From Fistulifera solaris (taxonomy: Eukaryota): a DNA stretch of 64,000 bases. The stretch lies in contig AP026123.1 of assembly GCA_030295235.1 (NCBI GenBank), positions 1,488,001-1,552,000 on the forward strand. Reading direction: 5' to 3'. The notes below the pieces were generated by a model. That model did not search any database and was not told where the DNA came from. It worked only from the letters and a program-made list of their open reading frames with translations. The translations under genes were made by a program, and so were the position numbers. Positions 11,821 to 46,397 of the stretch are shown here, piece after piece. How positions within the stretch are numbered: the stretch's first letter is position 1; the number at the start of each line of letters is the position of its first letter.

Positions 11821-12325
11821 CCTGTTCTGTCGTTCGAAGTATGTCATTTGGCAACCCGACTAGCTTCTTTTGTTCGTAGTGTGAAGACTGGAAATGGGCA
11901 GGAACGTCGACTTATATCACTGTATTCACGGGAAAACATCAAAAACAACAAAAAGGCGTTGCGGGTGCGAGTGCTGCGTTGACGATGAGTCATTCGACTG
12001 TCCTTGGTCCGGCTTCTCGGATTTCCACAACGATTGTCAAGACTGCAATGCAATCTGGTGCTATCCAATCTTCCTTCGTTCTAAGAACCTCTCCCTCTAG
12101 AGAGTCTAGGGTCTACTCTATGTTGTTTTCACACCACCAGTAAAGGAGGAATGCTGGGGAGTGGAGAACCAGAAGAATCATCATCGCTCTCTACCTCTAC
12201 CGTCTTACCTGGTACGTACCCTGTATTGTGTCCTGGTAGGAAGTTTTTTCCTTGGTTTTTCATCATAGTCCATTTTTTCCGAAAAGCAGGCAGAGTTTCT
12301 GTATATTTTATTACAACCTGTCCGG

Positions 12326-12405
12326 AAACGACGATAATATTCTGCCTCGCCGTAGGCTCTACGTAGAAACTTGTACTGAGAGGCAGAATTTTAACGTCCT
12401 TTCCC
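12326..12405. repeat. dispersed ~80-bp inverted-repeat (hairpin) element, copy 1
   Basis: Near-identical to 46398-46478. Arms ATTCTGCCTC (12339-12348) and GAGGCAGAAT (12380-12389) flank a shared 31-nt core. Confidence 0.85.
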
Positions 12406-13439
12406 CGCAATTTTCGGAACGAACACAGAAGTTCTACATGAAAAATGCTCCGTATGCATAATTTCTGAAAACTACACTGAATTTCTGAATGAGAATTATT
12501 ACGGAGTAGAGTATAATTCTCGTTTCCATTCTAGCGTCGCAGCTGCTTGTTGCTTTGATCATAGAATCATACATCATAGAGTCCGAATTTCGAAAAGGCT
12601 ACTAGTCCATTCCGCATCATTTCTGGAAGAAGACCCGTCCTCGTAAGCCTATTACCATGTAACCTTACAAGTATCCGTCCGTAGTGGTGACAAGCAGTCT
12701 CGACTCTTGACTTGATGATCAATACTACGGAGTAGCTATTACCTGTTACCTGTTAACCTATAGGTTTAAATTTTAAACTTGAGCCAGCTACTGATCGTGA
12801 AAGGCATTTTGTCCGGTTTGGTACAGGTGGGACGTTATGAAGTTTACAAATTACAAAAGACCTTGTCCATCAAGAAGAGAAGTCGAAATCGGACACGAGA
12901 CACGAGACACGAGACTTGCTAAATAATTGCCGCTTGCAAGCAATTAAGGACTTTGCCAATTTCACATGCGACACGCATCCTAAGATCAGATCCTCATGCA
13001 TTCGAATTCGCCCTTGTGTTGAGTTTTACTGCAGTTTCTCATTACAATGATAATGTTGGCGTCGAGACCCTATGCCACAGTCTATTGGTAGAGAGAATAA
13101 TATGCTCAGATCAGTAACCATGCTATGAAGCATTGAACGGAGGCAAGAGTTTGTAATGTTGCCATTCAGTCGATAAGAAAATAGATCCCGACCAGCTTCT
13201 CAACTTTCTAATTATTTCTGATACCCGGCTTTCATTCCGCTGAAGCGGCTAATAATAAAATCTCTTTATCAAATAATCACCTCATAAAGATCTTTTAGAA
13301 AAACCTGGAAGAAGCAACAGAATGATAGATTGCGGACAAATGCCAGTTGTACCAGGTACAGAAGGTTTCGAGCATCTCCGCTCCGGTATGAAAAAGTGGC
13401 TTTTGAACAAAAATAACGCGCAACGAATCATAGAACAAT

Positions 13440-13443
13440 AAAA
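13440..13443 (-). terminator. putative Pol III T4 terminator of the permuted tRNA
   Basis: TTTT on the minus strand, 8 nt after the end of the 5' half (trailer TCTGAATC-TTTT). Confidence 0.55.
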
Positions 13444-13451
13444 GATTCAGA

Positions 13452-13533
13452 CCGTAGTCAGGCGCCTTACCATTGGGCCAACGGGAATGTTCGACGATTT
13501 CCCGCCCGGGATTCGAACCCGGAATCTCCTGAT
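13452..13533 (-). tRNA. circularly permuted tRNA-Arg(ACG): 3' half 13533-13498, 10-nt spacer 13497-13488, 5' half 13487-13452
   Basis: Minus strand reads ATCAGGAGATTCCGGGTTCGAATCCCGGGCGGGAAA-tcgtcgaaca-TTCCCGTTGGCCCAATGGTAAGGCGCCTGACTACGG. The swapped halves give a 72-nt cloverleaf: acceptor TTCCCGT/GCGGGAA, D stem GCC/GGC, anticodon stem CCTGA/TCAGG with loop CT-ACG-GA, T stem CCGGG/CCCGG with loop TTCGAAT. Confidence 0.92.
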
Positions 13534-13570
13534 ACACTAACTGAACGCTGTCGATAACAGGAGCAATTGG

Positions 13571-13578
13571 TTATATAA
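13571..13578 (-). promoter_or_regulatory. TATA-like box upstream of the permuted tRNA
   Basis: TTATATAA lies ~38 nt upstream of the 3' half on the minus strand. Confidence 0.5.
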
Positions 13579-13739
13579 ACACCACACTTGAGATCCTCTC
13601 TTGACTGAAATTTCAAGTAATGCGGTAGAGGGTAAGTGGATGGTACACTTTCTCCCAGTCATCCAGTACCGCACAAGTACGCGATGCGACAAATAATAAT
13701 TCTCTCATCGCCCTTCCGTCGACCCAAGTAAAAAATGAA

Positions 13740-14145
13740 ACAGCAAAAGTATGATCTCACTGGATGTGAACTGTCGAACGGTTGCCGAAGTAGGGCAAAG
13801 GAAAAAGGAACAGAAAAGCAGCCGTCAGCCAGCCGTAGTCCAGCCGTAGTCGTATTGGTCTCTGTCATAAAAAAGCAAAAAGTACGATCTCGAATGGATG
13901 TGAACTGTCTATCGAACACGGGCGGACGAACGCAACGCGAAACGACCGCGTAACGCGTACTGTAAACCAAAAGAACCGCGCACCCAGCACAACCACAACC
14001 CACAACCCACAACGGCCGACCTCTCCGCTCCGTTTTCTCCACCCGGCTCCCCGCTCCGAACTCTGAACTCCGACGGTGATTTTTTTCTGTGAAAAAAGAA
14101 TTAGCAAAAAGTACGATCTTGGCTGATGTGAACCGTCCGTCGAAA
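13740..14145. repeat. three diverged copies of a ~40-bp motif (GCAAAAAGTAYGATCT..GATGTGAACYGTC..TCGAA)
   Basis: Copies begin near 13742, 13874 and 14103. Confidence 0.7.
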
Positions 14146-15173
14146 GAAGGTCGAGCAAATAATGCGAAACGGGACAAAGACCGCAGCGAGCTTTCCTTCG
14201 AGCTTGATGAGGAGGAGCTTGCTTCGAGCAGCATGAGCATGAGGGCCCTTGATACGACATAAGACATGATGGATTTCCTTTGACGCAAGCAAACGAAGAT
14301 CCAATTCCTGAAAACTTACCTGATGCTCACAAAGGTTTCTGCAGGCGTGGCTGTTAGGGAAAGCAATCAAAGGAAGGCCCTGGCTATCTTTGTGACTGTC
14401 GTGCCTGGCGTTTGATGGATAGTTCTTTCTTCGACCGTTTCTTTCTTTCCATGCCTTGTTTTCATTCGTCAAGTTCGTCAACAGCGTGCGAGAGAGTAAG
14501 TTGAGCCGGTGTTTAATTCGGGCCGTTTACTTACTGTCGTCCGTGCGGACCAAAATGGAAAATGGTGTCTTCGGAGAGCCATTCGGAAACAGTTCAACGA
14601 GGAGTCAAATGTCATCCGTAACTTGTTCTTTGTCGCGAAAAGGAGGAATACGAATGCGCAGCAATAATGTATAATGCGTTCTTTCAAAAGCATAGAGTGA
14701 ATGATCAATGATCGTGGTGCATGTTGCTTCGTCGTTCGAATGACATCGGCATGAGGCATGAGGGAACAGAATGCAAGATGCCAGATCCAGATGGCCACGA
14801 GAGGGGGAGAAACGTCAAAAAATGACCCGAACGAGAGTCATTTCGAGTATGTACCAAAATGTAGAGAAAGATACAGTTTGTGAAGTTCACACGTCACTCG
14901 TTTTGAATTTTGAATACTCCGGTACTGTACCTGGTACAGTACATCTTTTATTTTTGGCATTCCATTCGACGAAAACGAAAAACTAGAAATCTCTTTCTTT
15001 TTCCGAAGCCCTCGCAACAACTCGCAACGAAGATACGAAAGACGACTGACGTTCCCAATTACTCCGTATTTCAACTTGCACACGCTGAGCTTCTTGTTCA
15101 TTCTCAGACACAATTATTCGATCATTGTTCAACTTGTGTTTAGCTAAATCTACAAAAGCCTTACAAGTGAATC

Positions 15174-18100
15174 ATGGCGTCGTTTGCACCTACCAAGGTA
15201 CGTCATTTCGAGACGAATTCTCATTCGACGCGAACGAAGACACGGTAGCGAATCTCACAACATTCTTTTTCTTGAATCAGGCCAAAATGGAGGCCGAAGG
15301 CATCTCTCCTTCGGCTATTTCGGCTTTCGAATCGACTTTTAACTCGCTCGTATCAGGAAATACTGGTTTGATTCCCGAAGACACCATCTCACCGGCGCCG
15401 GACCTCGACAACGCCGAAGACTTCTCGAAAAGTATTACGGTCGATCCCGCCTTGCTCAAGGAAACCGTCGTACTCAAGCTCAATGGAGGTCTCGGTACCG
15501 GCATGGGTCTGGACAAGGCGAAATCGTTGCTCAAAGTCAAAGGCGACGATACTTTCTTGGACTTGACGGCCAAACAGGTCATGCAAATGCGCGAGGAATA
15601 CGGAATGAAGGTCAAGTTCATGCTCATGAACTCTTTTTCGACATCTCAAGATACTTTGGACTTTTTGAAAACCAAGTATCCGGGTCTGGCGTCCGAGGAA
15701 GGCCTCGAAATGATGCAAAACAAGGTCCCCAAATTGAATGCGGATACGCTCGAGGTACGTACGTTCGACATGAATCTCCGTCGTATACGTTTGACTCACA
15801 CTTCTCTATTCTTCTTCTCAGCCCGCCGTGTGTGAAACGGACCCCGACAACGAGTGGTGTCCTCCGGGTCATGGTGATTTGTATGCGGCCTTGGTCGGCT
15901 CTGGATGCTTGGACAGTTTGCTGGCCAGTGGCTTCAAGTACATGTTCGTGTCCAACTCGGACAACTTGGGGGCGGTCTTGGACTTGGCCATCTTGACCTA
16001 CTTTGCTCAAAAGGGTTCTTCGTTTATGATGGAGTGCTGTGAACGGACCGAAAACGACAAGAAGGGTGGCCATTTGGCCGTTCGCAAGGCGGATGGTCAG
16101 TTGGTGCTGCGCGAATCGGCCATGTGTGCCGACGAAGACGAAGAAGCCTTCCAGGACATTACCAAGCATCGATTTTTCAATACCAACAATCTGTGGATCC
16201 GCTTGGATATTTTGGAAGCAAATTATTGACAAGAACGGTGGCTTCATTCCGTTGCCGATGATTAAGAACAAGAAGACTGTCGACCCCAAAGATGATTCCT
16301 CGCAAGCGGTCTTTCAGTTGGAAACAGCCATGGGAGCTGCTATTGAATGCTTCGATGGCGCCACGGCCATTGTGGTGCCTCGTACACGTTTCGCGCCCGT
16401 GAAGAAATGCAGTGATTTGCTCCTTCTACGAAGTGATGCGTACACTTTGGTGGATCACAAGCCCGTTTTGAATCCGGCGTGTGGCGAAGCAGCTCCGATT
16501 ATCGACCTCGACAGCAAGGCGTACAAGCTAGTTGGTGCGCTCGAGGAAGCAACTGCGGGCGGCGTTCCGTCTTTGGTAAATTGCAAGCGTCTCAAAATCA
16601 AGGGAAAAGTTCGCATGTCGTCAAAAACGAAATTCATTGGTGACGTCGCCATCACCAACAGCAGCTCGGAGAGCAAATTCGTTCCCACGGGTGAGGTCAC
16701 CGGAAGTCACGACTTGACCGCCGCTGTCGGCATGGGTAAATTGTGCCCTACTATTGTCTCGACGGCGCCTATCGATGGACAAAAGCCGGGTACTTCCGGT
16801 CTTCGCAAGAAGGTCAAGGAATTCATGCAAGAGAATTACCTCGAAAATTTTGTCCAGTCGACGTTTGATGCTGTGAAAGCTAGTGGAACGGACGTTACCA
16901 AGGGATCTTTGGTCATTGGTGGAGATGGTCGCTACTTCAACGACCAAGCCATTCAGACGATCATCAAAATGGGTGTTGCGAACGGTGTCAAGCGCTTCTG
17001 GATCGGACAAGATGGTCTCTTGTCGACTCCTGCCGTTTCAGCTGTTATTCGAGAACGCGGACCGGGCTGGCAGTCGGCTTTCGGGGCATTTATTTTAACG
17101 GCCAGTCACAATCCCGGTGGACCAGACGAAGATTTCGGTATCAAGTACAACTGCGAGCACGGCCAGCCGGCACCGGAAAAGGTTACGGATGAAATTTATG
17201 CCAACACATGCACTATCAAGTCTTACAAGATTTGCAAGGACTTTCCTACAATCGATGTGTCCATTCCGGGTATCACCAATGTCAAGGCAGATGATGGAAG
17301 CAGCGAGGTCAATGTGGAAGTGATCAGCGCTACCGACAACCATGTTGAGTTGCTCAAATCGATCTTTGATTTTCCTGCGATCAAAGCGCTTCTCGACCGA
17401 AAGGACTTTACGATGGTGTACGATACCATGTACGGTGTGAACGGTCCATACGCAAAGAAGGTTTTCGTTGAAGAGCTTGGGCAGCCTGAAGAGATTTGCA
17501 TGAACGCTACTCCCAAGGATGACTTCAATGGTGGTCACGCCGACCCTAACCTCACCTACGCTAAGGAACTAGTGGCAAAGATGGGACTTGACCGCAACGG
17601 AATGAAAATTGATGTCCCTGCAGGAAGTGCGATTCCGGATTTTGGGGCTGCCGCTGATGGGGATGGCGACCGAAACATGATTCTGGGCAAGCAGTTTTTC
17701 GTCAGTCCTTCTGACTCGCTAGCTGTCATTGTCGCAAATGCTGATGCTATCCCATTCTTCCGCACTCAGGGTGGACTAAAAGGTGTCGCCCGTTCGATGC
17801 CTACTTCCGGGGCAGTTGACCTTGTTGCTAAAGATCTGAACTATAGTCTTTTCGAGACACCGACAGGTTGGAAATACTTTGGCAATCTGATGGATTCGAA
17901 GGAATTGTTTGGAGGCGAGGACTACACGCCGTTCATTTGCGGTGAAGAATCCTTCGGTACAGGATCGAATCACGTTCGTGAAAAGGACGGAATTTGGGCT
18001 GTTTTAGCATGGCTGCAGATTCTAGCGGTGGCCAATCCAGACGCCTCTCAACCACTAACTACAGTCGAGGATATCGTTACCGCTCATTGGCGAAAATATG

Positions 18101-18504
18101 GACGAAACTACTACTCCCGCTGGGATTTTGAGGGAGTTGATAAGGTCAAGGCGACTGCGATGATTGACAAGATGCGTTCGGATGCTGAAGCTAACACCGG
18201 AAAGACTGTCGGAAAGTACAAAATTGCCAAGGCAGACGACTTTACGTATGTTGATCCTGTTGATGGAAGTGTTTCGAAGAATCAAGGCATTCGATTCCTC
18301 ATGGAAGATGGATCTCGCATCATCTTCCGTTTGTCTGGCACAGCCGGTTCCGGTGCCACTGTTCGTATGTACATCGAGCAGTATGAACCGGAAAAGATCG
18401 ACATGGTTGCTTCCGAGGCGCTGAGTGATTTGATTCGTATCGCCTTGGACCTTTGCGACATTAAAGGGTTCGTCGGTACCGAGGAACCTACTGTCATTAC
18501 TTAA
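15174..18504 (+). CDS. UGP/PGM: fused UDP-glucose pyrophosphorylase / phosphoglucomutase
   Basis: UGPase motifs LKLNGGLGTGMG, WCPPGHGD, VSNSDNLGA and LETAMGAAI, followed by PGM motifs GQKPGTSGLRKK, TASHNPGG, DGDGDRN, CGEESFG and FRLSGT. Introns 15198-15280 and 15755-15821; frameshift near 16215. Confidence 0.95.
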
Positions 18505-18646
18505 GCTGCACGTGTAGCTCTTATTTGAGAACCAGTAAGTGTTTTAAAAAAGACAAGCCGTAGTGCAATATAGCTATTTCTATACATGTTGTTTATGAAA
18601 TTTTTATCAGGTTGAATGGCTTTCTTCGTCGAGTCGTCTTGCTCGC

Positions 18647-19234
18647 TTAGAATCTCGTTTGTCTTTTTTTCTCTTTTCGCTTCGAATGTTTTTCTCGTTT
18701 TCGTGCTTCTTTCTTTTGTTCCTTTTTCGCCTTTTTTCTTTTTCTCTTCCTTCTTTCCCTCGAAGAATCATCATCGGCTGGGGGTGCGAATAAGTCCTGT
18801 CCCTTTTCTATTGTAAATTGATTGGCTAACTGTTGGCCTTCATACGCGTGACCGGGAGCGGCCTGTTGTTTCTCTTCCAAATGTTTGGGCAAGCGATAAT
18901 TTTCGACGTGATCGATGCGGAGCGGTCGGTCTAAAATCTTGACACCAATGAGATTGTCGACTGCCAAAATACAGGACTGGGGGTCTTCGTACTTGACAAA
19001 GCCAAAACCTTTCGATTTACCGGTTTCCTCATCTCGAATCAAATGTGCGTCCTCTATTTCTCCGTACTGACTCAAAATGCACAATATATCACCCTCGGTC
19101 AGCTGATGGTCCAAATTTCCGACGTAGACCCAAGGGGCATGCGCAAACTGCGAGTGCCACGAACCGGCGGTTCCGGCCAGGCCCCGTTCTAATTCCTGAG
19201 CATTGATCTTCTCGATTTCTCGGATAGTATTCAT
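18647..19234 (-). CDS. RBMX2: RBMX2/Snu17 (Ist3) RRM protein, RES splicing complex
   Basis: MNTIREIEKINAQELERG..SWHSQF..WVYVGNL..LTEGDIL..SQYGE..RDEETGKSKGFGF..ILAVDNL.G..RIDHV, with a Lys/Arg-rich tail. Confidence 0.9.
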   Translation of the reverse strand: MNTIREIEKINAQELERGLAGTAGSWHSQFAHAPWVYVGNLDHQLTEGDILCILSQYGEIEDAHLIRDEETGKSKGFGFVKYEDPQSCILAVDNLIGVKILDRPLRIDHVENYRLPKHLEEKQQAAPGHAYEGQQLANQFTIEKGQDLFAPPADDDSSRERRKRKRKKAKKEQKKEARKREKHSKRKEKKRQTRF

Positions 19235-32500: not shown

Positions 32501-35500
32501 AAAACGCAAATCAGATATTGAAAAATGGTAGCATAACGATGAGCTTGTTCTTACGATAGCAGTTCCGGACGTCGCGAGTCAGCCCAATGAAATGGTAAAG
32601 CATCACCAGGAGGTATTTCAACAGAAGAGGTGTCTGAAGAACCCATTTGTTTAACTTCGAATCTGATAGATTTTGATTGATTAATCAGAAGAAAGCGCGA
32701 TGTGATAGTGAGTGATTTGGAAAGCTCACCCCAGGGTCCTTCAAGCGGGTGAATTGCATAGCAAAGTTCAAAGACTGAAGAGGAACACGAGACAGGCTGC
32801 ACTTTACTTTCCACTATCGTCTGTTCAGGCCAGCGGGACGCCCGTGCACGCATGGCGCCAAAAATCCTTCCAGAAATATTAGGTATATCAGAAGTAAGTG
32901 CCCATCGACCACCATTTACTTGAATGCCTAATTTCGCATTAGTAAAGTTTGATTTCCCTTCTTTTGTATTAACATCGGATAGATTTCGTCTCGGTTGATA
33001 ATACCCGTGGACTCCGGGCACGTGCATTTCGGTGTTACGAAATCCGCTACGTTTTCGGAACCACCGTCGTCGACGAAATCGATGAGTAACATTAAAGGTT
33101 CTAGTGCCGACAAAGTCGTTTAGATCTGCAAACGACTCAAACCCATCATCTGATAGACTACCTGCGTAGTCAATTTGCTGTACGCCTCCCGTCAGAAAAC
33201 GATTGGACTCCCAAACAATAAATATATAATTGAAACGTACCCAATCTTTATCCTTCCAAAACCACTTGGCAGTATCGACGCACGGGTCTATTTCTCGGGG
33301 ATCATTAACTTTGTTATTTGGGTTTTCCGTCGCCCACCACCTGGTCTCGCCTTCATTCATTAGGTCAACATACTCAAAAAACTCCTCTACTACGAATGGA
33401 ACGGTTTGCCCTGCAATACGGGTAATATCAGCAACTAAACCGCTTGAATTTTTAAGCCTTTTCATTTCGACGCCGCTATCGAAGAGTAATGATATTTCCC
33501 TCAAAGCAGCCTCGGCTGCTGATAATTCATCCTCTACTAAGTCCTGTTTTGCTTCATTATCGAAACTCGAAGTAGCCTCCCACGGGTAACCAAATGCAAT
33601 GTCCAGCGATGTGCAATTTGTCAGCCATAGCTCAGCGAACAGCGCGACTTCTAAACCACACTCCTTTTTTATTATTCGCAAGGATAAATCATGAGGGACT
33701 CCAAACGAATCTTTTAGGTGAACATAGCGAACTGACTGGCCTTCGCTGTTGTCCGATGTACCTTCGATTATTGGGTGTTGTAAGGAGTCCAAGGTTTTCT
33801 GCTCGTCCAAAGAAATAGAGACATGATCGGACCAATGAGCAAATCCAGACGGGCGGAAGCGAGCGGTGATTCCCACAGTTGATCTAGCAAAGATCTCAAT
33901 CTTCTCACCGCTTTCCAGAGGAACCGGTTTTCCAGAGTGTTCCTGGGCACGTGATATTGATCCATCGAAAGCGGCGCTTTCGGGATCACTACTTCCCATT
34001 CTATGCACACCGGTAAAAGGTTTCGCAACGATACGGAACTGTCAATGGTAAGAGTAAGTATACCGTCTCGCTTGACAGTTCCCACCGAAAGCCAACCAGA
34101 CGGTGACACGCCTCCTTCGTGTAAACATTTTAAGGTCCTATTCGAATGAGAGCTGAAATCCAAACCGTCTTCTGCGGACGAACGGACTAGAATTGTATAG
34201 CTGTATTCTTCAGATGTTCTTATACCGCAAACCCAGGTCCCATTTGTCATATCTAGCCAGACGGGGAGATAGAAATACGACTTTGGGTACACCATACCCA
34301 CTGCCTTCATGTCGACTTCCTCTGTATGAGGCCGATCAGCGGTCGAAAAAGAGAAAAGCTACTTCAACAGGTTCGCGAAGAAGCGAAAGTATTCGAATAG
34401 AACTTCCGAGTGTTATGATTGTTTTCTCTTCTACGAGCTCTACACACCAGGAGAGCATCTGGTGGCCTTCCGTGGGACGTCGGCTCCCAGAAGAGTTCTG
34501 GTCATTTGCTGTGTGGAAGCGAATCGGAAGAAGCATTTCTACTGGTCCTTCAATCTCCTGGCCAGTCAAAGGCTCGACGACTATTCCCGCAACAGTCTGC
34601 AGGGAAACTAACTCAATTGGAATTTTCGCAACTGGAGAAATATCTTCGTCCTGTACGTCATTTGTTTCAACTCGAAATAATATGTCCTGACCATTTCCCA
34701 CCATATGGATCACGGACGGATCGTAGCTTTCGAGTCCGCTGAACTCACCCACAGACAGAAATGGGGCTTCAGTGGGATTTTGGTACTCCGTTTTGACATG
34801 CTGTCTTTGCCGCACAAAGGCGGCGGAGAGGCCAGTCCGATTCCGAAAGATAAAAGGTCTGGTTGACCCATGCTTCTGCTTCCGGGCGTAGACGAGCGCA
34901 GCGGTAGCGGCGCTGCGAACGTTCTTCACCTGATCGCCTTCCTTTTCAGTGTGGAGGGCTTCATCTTGGTCTTCTATAGATTCGAACGACTGGGTAAAAT
35001 TCAATGCATAGGTGCTCCATGATAAAAACTTGCTGATAGCCTCAGCTGCAGCGCTGGTAATATTGATTGCTAGCCCATCATCACTGTCACTGAATTCCAG
35101 CGTTAATTGTCTTGTATTCTCTCTGTCATCTCGAAAGTCAGCAGAAAAAAGCATCCGTCCTTGCTCAAAAAGCGGTTCCCAACACCAGATCCGAAAGTTA
35201 TAGTAATCCACACCGATAGACGCCGAAATAGAAAGACGTATGAATTTCTCCTCTTTTCATCTACCTTACAAGCTAAGCGCGAAGAAGAAATTTCAGCTTT
35301 TAGCAAAGGAAAGTCTCGCTCAACAAGCGAAAGGACTGCGGACGAAAAGTTCACGTCGAATGTTGAATTGCGGTCAACAACGGTGTCGGGTACTAGTAAG
35401 ACTTCTTCAGAGACCGCTTTCCGTCTAGCTAAAGTCAATGTGATGGGCCTCTCAAGAATCAAAATCTGATTGACGAAGCCAAGAAAGTCTCCATCGTTGT

Positions 35501-44085: not shown

Positions 44086-44647
44086 CGCTCGGTCTTATTA
44101 TTATCAGTAAGCGTTTCGATTCCAGCGCAAGTTGTAAATGCGTGTTCTTATAACATTCTTTCATTACAAGAACCTGGTAAGTTATGGAGAAACTCGTCTT
44201 TCAATGACATCAACATACTCCGTGCGATCGCATTCATCGCAGCAACCGCATGGCGGAAACGAATGAATGAGGTGCGACAGCGGTTACTGTAACGGTGGTG
44301 AAAGATTATGTAAAATACGTCATATTACACGTTGACGTAATAAATAAATCGCACTACTACATAAATGACTTTACTCGAATACCGGACTCTGGCTCCTCGA
44401 CCACCACCCATCAATATCAATTTGCCCATCGCAACGAAACAACCCATTTCTCGCTTGCTCAGACTTCTATGAATGGTCGCTGTTTCTTCCGTTCTATTCA
44501 ATACAACAGCCAGGCTTTGAACCACTCTAGAAAAAAGCAAAAAGAAAGGCGCTTCGTCTCTAAAGTCTTGGACCGGAAATGCCAGCTCGCAAGATATTCG
44601 ACCTACGATACAAAGGGTTGATTTTCCTTGTTGTGTTGCTTTTCGAA

Positions 44648-46165
44648 ATGCTCGGGCTTCAGTTCCGAATAGCTCGGTGTACCCGGGTATCTGCCTTTCA
44701 TATCCGCCCAAGGTCTTCATTTATTTCCCGTGTAACGCGCTCGAATACACTGCGCTACCTTGCCACACGCTCTTACACAATTTCTGCCCCAAATCAATCG
44801 CACAACGAACAAATTTTGAAAAACGACGAGTTACTAAATTGGCGAAATCATCCTGCTTTGAACATTTCAATTTCATTTCCGACTTGGATAATACCGGTTG
44901 CAGGCAAGGGAATCCAGAAACTCTTAAGCGAACCACTACTACAACCTTACTTGGCAACTCGCCTCGATATCTTGGAACACACGCATCAACGGCTGAAAGT
45001 CGTTCAAGACTACCACACAGATGGCCAAAATCGAAATACGACTCATAAAGTTGTTCTTTTGCATCCAGATACCCCTTCTCAAGAGCACCTTCCCTTGGAA
45101 GTGCAGCAATTGATGCGCGATTACAAAGTCGACTCTCCCGGCCCCTTGATTCCTGTTTCATTCAATTACAAACAATTTACTGCATCCTACGTCTTAACAA
45201 AGCTTCTGCCACCGGAAGCGCACCCTCCACCAACTTCCTTTGAGACCATCGGACATGTGGCACATTTGAATTTACGGGAAAATCACCTTCCTTACAAACG
45301 ACTGATAGGAGAAGTCTTGTTGGAGACGCTGCCGACGATTGAAACAGTCATACACAAAGTGGGAGAAGTCACGGGACCGTTTCGGACGTACGATTTTTCG
45401 GTCTTGGCGGGTCGCCCGGACACGGCCGTCAAAGTGACCGAAAGTGGTATTCAAATGCATTTTGACGTGGCAGAAGTCTATTGGTCGGCACGCTTATCAG
45501 AGGAACGGCAACGCATTTTGAAGTATGAGATTCAGCCAGGAGACTATATAGCTGACGCATTTTGTGGAGTGGGAGCTATTTGTCTTATGGCTGCTGCACA
45601 GCTCAATTGCACAATTTCGGCCAATGACTGGAACCCGAAAGCAGTGGAATATCTGAAGGCGAACACTGTGTTGAATGGGGTGGAGCAAAACTTCAAGAAG
45701 CTATCCTGCACTGACGCTTACGACTTTCTAATGGACCTCGGTCTCGCGGATGATAAGAAAGAGACCAGGCTTCCCGATCATGTTTTGCTCAATTTTCCAT
45801 TGGAAGCCCCGCGATTTTTGGGAGCACTTCGTTGGTGGCCCGTCAAAAGTCCATCGAATTTGAAACGGAGCGACAAGGCTGAAAAGGATGAAACGCACCG
45901 TACCCCACGTGTGCACGTGTATACGTTTGCCCGTGCGGACCCCGAAACCAATCGGAGCGCCGAGGACGTAGCAGTAGATTCAATTGCTTCCAATCTGCTT
46001 CCCATGGGAGATTCGACTTATCGTAAAGATGAACTTAACAATGATTACGGGTGTAAGGTCAATGTTCATGACGTAAGAGATGTAGCGCCTGGAAAGGTTG
46101 TCATGTGCGTCAGTTTCAGCGCGACACCAAGACTGCTACGGTGTATGCAAGGGGATTTTTCCTAG
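44648..46165 (+). CDS. TRM5: tRNA (guanine-37-N1)-methyltransferase, Trm5/Met-10 family, probably organelle-targeted
   Basis: PTSFETIGHVAHLNLR, IGEVLL, FRTY..VLAG, VYWSARLSEER, DAFCGVG, ANDWNP and VHVYTF motifs. R/S-rich N-terminal extension. Confidence 0.9.
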   Translation: MLGLQFRIARCTRVSAFHIRPRSSFISRVTRSNTLRYLATRSYTISAPNQSHNEQILKNDELLNWRNHPALNISISFPTWIIPVAGKGIQKLLSEPLLQPYLATRLDILEHTHQRLKVVQDYHTDGQNRNTTHKVVLLHPDTPSQEHLPLEVQQLMRDYKVDSPGPLIPVSFNYKQFTASYVLTKLLPPEAHPPPTSFETIGHVAHLNLRENHLPYKRLIGEVLLETLPTIETVIHKVGEVTGPFRTYDFSVLAGRPDTAVKVTESGIQMHFDVAEVYWSARLSEERQRILKYEIQPGDYIADAFCGVGAICLMAAAQLNCTISANDWNPKAVEYLKANTVLNGVEQNFKKLSCTDAYDFLMDLGLADDKKETRLPDHVLLNFPLEAPRFLGALRWWPVKSPSNLKRSDKAEKDETHRTPRVHVYTFARADPETNRSAEDVAVDSIASNLLPMGDSTYRKDELNNDYGCKVNVHDVRDVAPGKVVMCVSFSATPRLLRCMQGDFS

Positions 46166-46397
46166 ATGAACTTTAGCTATGACAACGTAAGCGATCACTT
46201 TATCAACTAAGAAGCAGGCAGCTAGACGGGATTCGAACCACCAACGACATGATTACCAACATTTCTAAACATGAATCGAAGAGTAGACATTCGTAACATT
46301 GCATCTGTTGTCTTTTTCATGTTTGGTGTTCCAATTTAATGTCGATTCTTGCTAATAGTCTCTGTGAAGGTATGTTGAAGAAAGGTTCGATAGAAAT

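Follow-up and report, generated by a model that had tools for sequence, protein, structure and literature searches.

A probable circularly permuted tRNA-Arg(ACG) gene in the nuclear genome of the diatom Fistulifera solaris and its relatives in metagenomes

Can a tRNA gene whose 3′ half is encoded upstream of its 5′ half be a working gene of a diatom nucleus? This question is raised by a short locus on the minus strand of the window, that is, of the whole 64-kb stretch of Fistulifera solaris DNA analysed here, in which the two halves of a tRNA-Arg(ACG) stand in inverted order around a linker of 10 nt. We consider it highly probable, judging from the locus and from its relatives in public sequence collections, that it represents a working nuclear gene of the circularly permuted type II, in which the break falls between positions 37 and 38 of the tRNA.

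Anatomy and detection of the locus

Read along the minus strand, the locus comprises a TATA-like box, a leader, the 3′ half, the linker, the 5′ half, a trailer and a T-run. The 3′ half (13498..13533, minus strand; 36 nt, positions 38–73, from A38 to A73), which was read from the sequence and agrees with the ARAGORN call on swapped halves and with covariation, consists of ATCAGG, the variable loop AGATT, the T arm CCGGG-TTCGAAT-CCCGG, the acceptor strand GCGGGAA and the discriminator A; its T arm contains a B-box-like GGTTCGAATCC. The linker TCGTCGAACA (13488..13497, minus strand; 10 nt) was read from the sequence and leads from A73 to U1. The 5′ half (13452..13487, minus strand; 36 nt, positions 1–37 without position 17, from U1 to G37), identified from the sequence and by the swapped-halves ARAGORN call, consists of TTCCCGT, TG, the D arm GCCC-AATGGTA-AGGC, G26, CCTGA and the loop CTACGG, and so ends in CU-ACG-G. 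CCA is not encoded.

The flanking signals are likewise on the minus strand. The TATA-like element TATATAA (13571..13577), located at −44 from A38, is a putative upstream promoter for RNA polymerase III (Pol III). The leader (13534..13546), predicted to be cut away at maturation, is made up of GUUCAG (13546..13541), UUAG (13540..13537) and UGU (13536..13534). The trailer (13440..13451), read from the sequence and its fold, has the form U-CUGAAU-C and is followed by TTTT (13443..13440), a T-run starting at +9 that would serve as the Pol III terminator. The linker itself contains neither a TATA-like sequence nor a T-stretch, both signals being situated outside the two halves and the linker.

An earlier note on this DNA, made from the letters alone, had described a 3′ half, a 10-nt spacer and a 5′ half on the minus strand with the break at 37/38, and a re-reading of the sequence found its coordinates and every feature correct. 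Once the halves are exchanged, they form the cloverleaf that it had listed, with an acceptor stem of 7 bp (U7.G66 among them), anticodon and T stems of 5 bp each and the conserved nucleotides U8, A14, G18G19, U33 and T54–A58 (TTCGA), all of which are present. The D stem is composed of 3 bp and a C13.A22 mismatch, the anticodon is ACG and the D loop has U20. According to the available part of Igloi (2022; PMC8975779), U20 or C20 is the rule in the nuclear tRNA-Arg of diatoms but, fungi apart, uncommon elsewhere.

In its encoded order, the locus gave no tRNA match with either the Rfam model RF00005 or ARAGORN, and ordinary scans of the whole 64-kb window detected no tRNA by ARAGORN or by Rfam at gathering scores. 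The same model gave 54.6 and 54.3 bits to two ordinary-order loci, L001 and L006, used as positive controls. Since no tRNA was called anywhere in the window by the two programs, no complementary halves adjoin the locus, which agrees with the earlier contention that it is not a pair of adjacent normal genes; the blank results of both programs likewise bear out the expectation that standard tRNA scans miss permuted genes. When the halves were exchanged by coordinates with a script, ARAGORN called tRNA-Arg(acg) [1,72], of 72 nt.

As a control for chance, 6389 overlapping 120-nt segments of the window were each concatenated with themselves, which makes a 37/38-permuted gene resemble an intron-containing one, and were scanned by ARAGORN with introns allowed. 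Only seven segments matched, all of them overlapping the permuted locus, and in four of these the call was Arg(acg), with 37/38 as the site of the ‘intron’. The permuted locus was also the sole match of a brute-force scan around the 26 T-loop-like anchors of the window, and neither the doubled-segment scan nor the anchor search found any further permuted tRNA in the window. One T-loop-like GGTTCGAATCC motif on the minus strand near 46230 (46220–46245) was considered and rejected as a tRNA fragment, having no matching T stem.

The permuted gene is located in an ORF-poor stretch; about 125 nt upstream of it lies, on the same strand, an unannotated ORF of 218 aa. The ORFs of the window are of eukaryotic nuclear character and include HEAT-repeat, VPS13-like and CAP-Gly/LRR/ubiquitin-like proteins and a UDP-glucose pyrophosphorylase/phosphoglucomutase fusion. 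The ORF at 16039–18504 (plus strand) shares 99% identity with a Fistulifera solaris protein and 76–85% with many others, several of them diatom-named. This match and the eukaryotic nuclear ORF content confirm that the host is a diatom nuclear genome, as had been surmised from the sequence.

Relatives in metagenomes and in public sequencing runs

Relatives were searched for in a metagenome collection with a 29-nt probe from the core of the 5′ half (U8..G37), which favours neither gene order, and the loci found were examined with 500 nt of flank per side. The probe gave 25 matches in 24 loci, of which 18 are permuted and six ordinary in gene order; grouping at >95% identity leaves 12 permuted and three ordinary groups. 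The same 29-mer had no match in viral contigs and none in bacterial and archaeal genome contigs. In encoded order, ARAGORN called Arg(acg) in five of the six ordinary loci but gave this call to no permuted locus, while after swapping of the halves it called tRNA-Arg(acg) [1,72] in all 18 copies so treated (the Fistulifera copy and 17 from metagenomes). An ordinary-order copy that received no ARAGORN call, L023:79–135 (minus strand), has a 5′ acceptor strand pairing at 4–5 of seven positions, an Rfam match limited to model positions 8–63 and no T-run nearby, and is probably a pseudogene.

Sixteen of the permuted loci, L010 among them, have the 3′ half directly upstream, a linker of 4–18 nt, the 5′ half and then a trailer; the linkers have no common sequence. 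In the two others, L013 and L018 (oriented positions 364–529, locus minus strand), which are 99.6% identical and come from two different metagenomes, the 3′ half is interrupted after T54 by an 86-nt insert that is C/A-rich and unstructured, starts with GTAAGT and ends with CACAG. This insert may be an intron, either of tRNA type or spliceosomal-looking, or else an insertion that disables the gene; the fold of L013 gave no sign of the intron type.

Locus L010 carries two permuted Arg(ACG) units in tandem with a period of 96 nt (L010:479–720, locus minus strand). Its middle part, composed of a 5′ half, a 19-nt spacer and a 3′ half, reads as an intron-containing ordinary tRNA both for the Rfam tRNA model (43.6 bits) and for ARAGORN, which mis-called it Val. 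By its layout, L010 looks like the tandem-duplication intermediate that has been proposed for the origin of permuted genes.

Two sets of loci, L005/L011 with L009 and L007 with L016, can be aligned over about 1 kb with 65–83% identity in the flanks, and keep their halves: the sole difference between the halves of L005 and L009 is at the acceptor pair 5-68 (C5-G68 versus G5.U68). Judging from these alignments, the loci appear to be orthologues, or else paralogues of long standing, in organisms related to each other. A Pfam search of 12 flank ORFs from metagenome loci gave no match, tblastx between related loci revealed no frame-specific conservation and tblastx of the metagenome loci against the window matched only the tRNA.

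The assembly of the locus was checked by comparing Logan contigs of four public runs, here X1, X2, X3 and X6, with positions 13200–13800. X1 is probably DNA, as its intergenic coverage is even. Its single contigs span 13200–13521 and 13510–13800 with no differing letters, the second with a single inserted base at 13744, and a 48-nt contig covers 13492–13539; X1 is possibly the window's own assembly data, so that its agreement is not independent. X2 is a wetland metagenome from a separate study, in which two contigs (1918 nt and 94 nt) show the same half–linker–half order and no contig joins the exact locus to its own flanks. Further contigs of X1 and X2 carry the 5′ half, the linker and the 3′ half in permuted order within unrelated or diverged flanks, and in these related contigs every listed letter difference or deletion falls within 13488–13496, in the linker. 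As a separate observation, X2 contains 53% of the sampled words of window positions 12000–19000, and its contigs match 13200–13298 exactly and 13721–13800 exactly save for one inserted A that is also found in X1; such flank matches imply that the wetland sample contained an organism very closely related to the source.

One X1 contig matches 13510–13544 and 13631–13691 with 88 other letters in between, and would look like a homoeologous copy in an allopolyploid genome; the F. solaris assembly preprint, in the part available, reports homoeologous gene pairs with a median identity of 91%. Summed contig depth is about 100 over the gene versus 16–19 in the flanks, an excess of approximately fivefold that fits several gene copies and is not a copy number. 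A ‘goes back’ joint, the mark of an ordinary-order copy with these halves, was listed for none of the X1 and X2 contigs, which can miss copies; this is a weak indication that an ordinary-order gene is absent from the organism. X3 and X6, recorded or guessed as RNA and represented by contigs, which cannot show RNA ends, gave nothing on this stretch.

Covariation, processing signals and rival explanations

Covariation was analysed in an alignment of 15 distinct permuted copies, two pairs of which are near-duplicate. Over the four cloverleaf helices 94.9% of cells are paired versus 86.1% in shuffles, none of 500 shuffles reaching the former value, and pairing falls to 30–58% when the partners are slid by 1–3 columns. 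The acceptor stem is the most telling helix in this respect, because it requires the upstream 3′ half to pair with the downstream 5′ half: across the linker it is 99% paired, with two-sided changes at four of its seven pairs. Pair 1-72 is G.U in 14 copies and U-A in the Fistulifera locus, and pair 5-68 occurs as U-A, C-G, G-C and G.U. The T stem shows two-sided changes at two of five pairs. The anticodon stem, the 5′ strand of which is fixed by the probe, is invariant in the alignment and hence uninformative as to covariation; both of its strands are conserved, together with an intact CU-ACG-GA loop.

Processing signals were counted over 13 non-redundant permuted copies. The leader 4-mer in register −3/−4 before A38 is fully complementary to C32–C35 (CUAC) in seven copies and complementary at three of four positions in three more, including the Fistulifera locus (UUAG), whereas at other registers of the same leaders full complementarity is found in 0.9%; a G stands opposite C32 in 11 of the 13 copies. 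The position of this 4-mer is that of the predicted central helix of a bulge–helix–bulge (BHB) motif. The eukaryotic splicing endonuclease uses an anticodon–intron pair at the 3′ splice site, and it is there that the leader 4-mer sits. The pair is named by Yoshihisa (2014; PMC4090602, as available in part). A T-run of at least four T starting between +2 and +20 follows the 5′ half in 12 of the 13 copies, the exception being unit one of the tandem in L010. A regular expression for TATA-like sequences gave a match no more than 70 nt upstream in seven copies, five of them at −42 to −45 (the Fistulifera element at −44 included), and none in the other six.

The minimum-energy fold of the Fistulifera locus contains the acceptor, T and anticodon helices and a 6-bp helix between leader and trailer (GUUCAG with CUGAAU). 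With the leader–trailer pairing, G36, G37 and U+1 would be unpaired at the first cut, and U−3, G−2, U−1 and A38 at the second. The predicted BHB is a relaxed one: its central helix has three pairs and a C.U mismatch, its leader-side bulge is of 4 nt instead of 3, and the minimum-energy fold favours a different local pairing over this central helix. The fold of the 121-nt stretch is no better than that of shuffles (z = −0.96). Across loci, the leader–trailer duplex is only slightly better than mismatched combinations, the mean energies being −5.15 and −3.98 kcal/mol respectively, with 240 of 5000 permutations as low. This outer helix is uneven, reaching −16.3 kcal/mol in L008 and being absent where the T-run begins 2–5 nt past G37.

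The aligned copies show, as far as comparison of their letters can, that selection acts on the permuted form, because the acceptor stem covaries across the linker, the leader is complementary to the anticodon loop and T-runs follow the 5′ half. With the order of the halves and the swapped-halves call, this comparative evidence from metagenome copies upholds the initial assignment of the locus as a type II circularly permuted gene.

The alternative that survives best is that the locus is a dead relic, left when an intron-containing tRNA-Arg gene was duplicated in tandem and the outer halves decayed; it would not be transcribed, or not be matured, and ordinary-order genes elsewhere would supply the tRNA. 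Tandem arrays of the kind required do exist, as L010 shows by its 96-nt period and a middle that reads as an intron-containing tRNA; ordinary-order genes with the same 5′ core occur in other environmental organisms (six of the 24 loci), and the RNA-type runs X3 and X6 were silent on the stretch. However, the halves stay intact while linkers and flanks diverge, which is not the behaviour of a decaying relic, and neither compensatory acceptor changes across the linker, nor a leader 4-mer complementary to the anticodon loop, nor a T-run after the 5′ half in nearly all copies would be expected of one. Moreover, the organism has several permuted copies, and no ordinary-order contig was seen in X1 or X2. 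We therefore regard a relic as unlikely.

Somewhat less likely still is a non-coding RNA of tRNA-like build that functions in its encoded order and does not decode, for example a Y-RNA-like molecule in the manner of the bacterial YrlA. The idea takes its support from Rfam: at relaxed thresholds the only match to the locus is YrlA (RF02553; 24.8 bits, E = 0.0037, 13432–13544 minus strand), and the permuted metagenome loci likewise gave only sub-threshold YrlA matches (L008, 29.4 bits; L003, 28.8 bits). All of these scores are, however, far below the gathering score of 69, so that membership of the family fails for the Fistulifera locus. YrlA and the locus have in common the linear order of T arm, acceptor-like stem and D arm, and the weak match to the covariance model reflects only this common order. 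Unlike the locus, YrlA has no anticodon arm that would complete a tRNA on permutation, and it is a bacterial and phage family according to its Rfam description. In the permuted copies, both anticodon-stem strands and the anticodon loop are conserved, and swapping yields a standard tRNA in every copy so treated.

Finally, an assembly artefact or a chance meeting of two unrelated tRNA fragments is so improbable that it may be set aside: although X1 is possibly the source of the assembly, and although no single X2 contig links the exact locus with its own flanks, the contigs of X1 and of the separate study X2 agree on the order that the earlier note had wished to see guarded against misassembly, and 18 metagenome loci from many assemblies share it.

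Proposed maturation and comparison with known permuted genes

If the locus is a working permuted gene, as we think highly probable, its tRNA would be produced through a circular intermediate. RNA polymerase III would start downstream of the TATA-like box and stop at the T-run. The leader and the trailer would fold with the anticodon loop into the relaxed BHB, the tRNA-splicing endonuclease would cut after G37 and before A38, and tRNA ligase would join G37 to A38 to give a circle of 82 nt. RNase P and tRNase Z would then cut the circle at U1 and A73, thereby releasing the 10-nt linker, after which CCA would be added. A34 would presumably be deaminated to inosine, a modification usual for eukaryotic tRNA-Arg(ACG). 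The steps are proposed by analogy with Cyanidioschyzon merolae, as described in the available text of the review by Soma (2014; PMC3978253). Of the earlier suggestion that an undescribed maturation route might operate in this lineage, the novelty of the lineage appears to stand; the route itself would be the known one of splicing endonuclease, ligase, circle, RNase P and tRNase Z.

Table 1 of the same review comprises 34 permuted genes, 11 in C. merolae, 19 in Ostreococcus and Micromonas, two in the nucleomorph of Bigelowiella natans and two in Thermofilum pendens; these are the lineages that the earlier note had named. Arg(ACG) does not figure among the 34 genes of that table, and neither does any stramenopile. 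In the parts available, this review and a 2026 paper on algal tRNA repertoires (PMC13578239) attribute permuted tRNA genes to six unicellular algae (one red, four green and one green-derived nucleomorph) and one archaeon; in the latter paper, which names the same lineages, the diatom Phaeodactylum is cited only for its small number of tRNA genes. The available portions of the PlantRNA 2.0 and tRNAscan-SE 2.0 papers mention no diatom or stramenopile permuted tRNA. As the earlier note had supposed, full-text searches of the literature found no report of permuted tRNAs in diatoms or other stramenopiles, unless one is present in Maruyama et al. (2010) or in the supplement of Igloi (2022).

The closest parallel is with the type II genes of C. 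merolae, for example Leu(CAG) with an intervening sequence of 9 bp, in which, as in Fistulifera, the 3′ half lies upstream on the same strand and the junction is at 37/38 (PMC3978253, in the sections available, as for the comparisons that follow). C. merolae permuted genes have a TATA-like sequence upstream and a T-stretch downstream, and their intervening sequence is devoid of signals. In both organisms a short intervening sequence free of promoter and terminator joins the acceptor ends, a TATA-like box precedes the gene by no more than about 50 bp, a T-stretch follows it, and CCA is not encoded. Leader and trailer can form a BHB-like motif in C. merolae and may do so, in a relaxed form, in Fistulifera. 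The two differ in that C. merolae is a red alga whereas the Fistulifera gene belongs to the nucleus of a diatom, a stramenopile, and in that expression and the circular intermediate were demonstrated experimentally in C. merolae and are predicted for the Fistulifera gene.

The permuted genes of Ostreococcus, Micromonas and the B. natans nucleomorph, for which the table cites Maruyama et al. (2010), are almost all of type II, with linkers of 5–64 bp and AT-rich upstream regions, as in Fistulifera. They belong to green algae or to a green-derived nucleomorph and represent another set of isoacceptors: the Arg gene listed for O. tauri, with an 11-bp intervening sequence, has the anticodon TCT in contrast to ACG in Fistulifera. 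In T. pendens, for which the table cites Chan, Cozen and Lowe (2011), the permutation of tRNA-iMet and tRNA-Tyr is resolved by the intron-splicing machinery, as we propose for Fistulifera; this system is, however, archaeal, with the junction at 59/60 in the T loop and strict BHB recognition, whereas the Fistulifera junction is at 37/38. The layout and the presumed mechanism are known, and the lineage, the isoacceptor and the environmental breadth appear to be new.

A diatom nuclear case with many environmental relatives would extend permuted tRNA genes to the stramenopiles, a major and ecologically dominant group, and would add an isoacceptor required by all eukaryotes to read CGN codons. Since ARAGORN and Rfam miss the gene, diatom tRNA inventories and analyses of codon decoding may be incomplete. 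The occurrence of one tRNA in ordinary-order, tandem, permuted and permuted-plus-insert forms offers natural material on the origin of permuted genes, and bears on how the eukaryotic splicing endonuclease handles junctions that lack the usual geometry of the mature domain.

A broader reading can be offered more tentatively, and we think it somewhat more apt to fail than to hold in its entirety: in Fistulifera, together with a wide range of uncultured relatives, permuted genes alone would encode tRNA-Arg(ACG), an essential tRNA whose A34 is presumably modified to inosine; the layout would have originated within the lineage when an intron-containing gene was duplicated in tandem, L010 being a surviving intermediate; and L013 and L018, with their additional T-loop insert, would be further-disrupted forms. 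Were permuted genes indeed the sole source of tRNA-Arg(ACG), diatoms could not do without the circularisation pathway.

Three further features of the window were recorded in passing. On the plus strand, 15089–18504 contains the ORFs of the UDP-glucose pyrophosphorylase/phosphoglucomutase fusion, with 99% identity to a Fistulifera solaris protein. On the minus strand, a run of long ORFs at 32551–42747 matches the N-terminal, middle and adaptor-binding domains of VPS13 and is probably one large VPS13-like gene broken by introns or frame changes. An ORF at 44579–46165 (plus strand) has a TYW2 N-terminal domain and a TRM5/TYW2 methyltransferase domain, which belong to a family that modifies position 37 of tRNAs; a connection with the permuted tRNA gene, 31 kb distant, is improbable.
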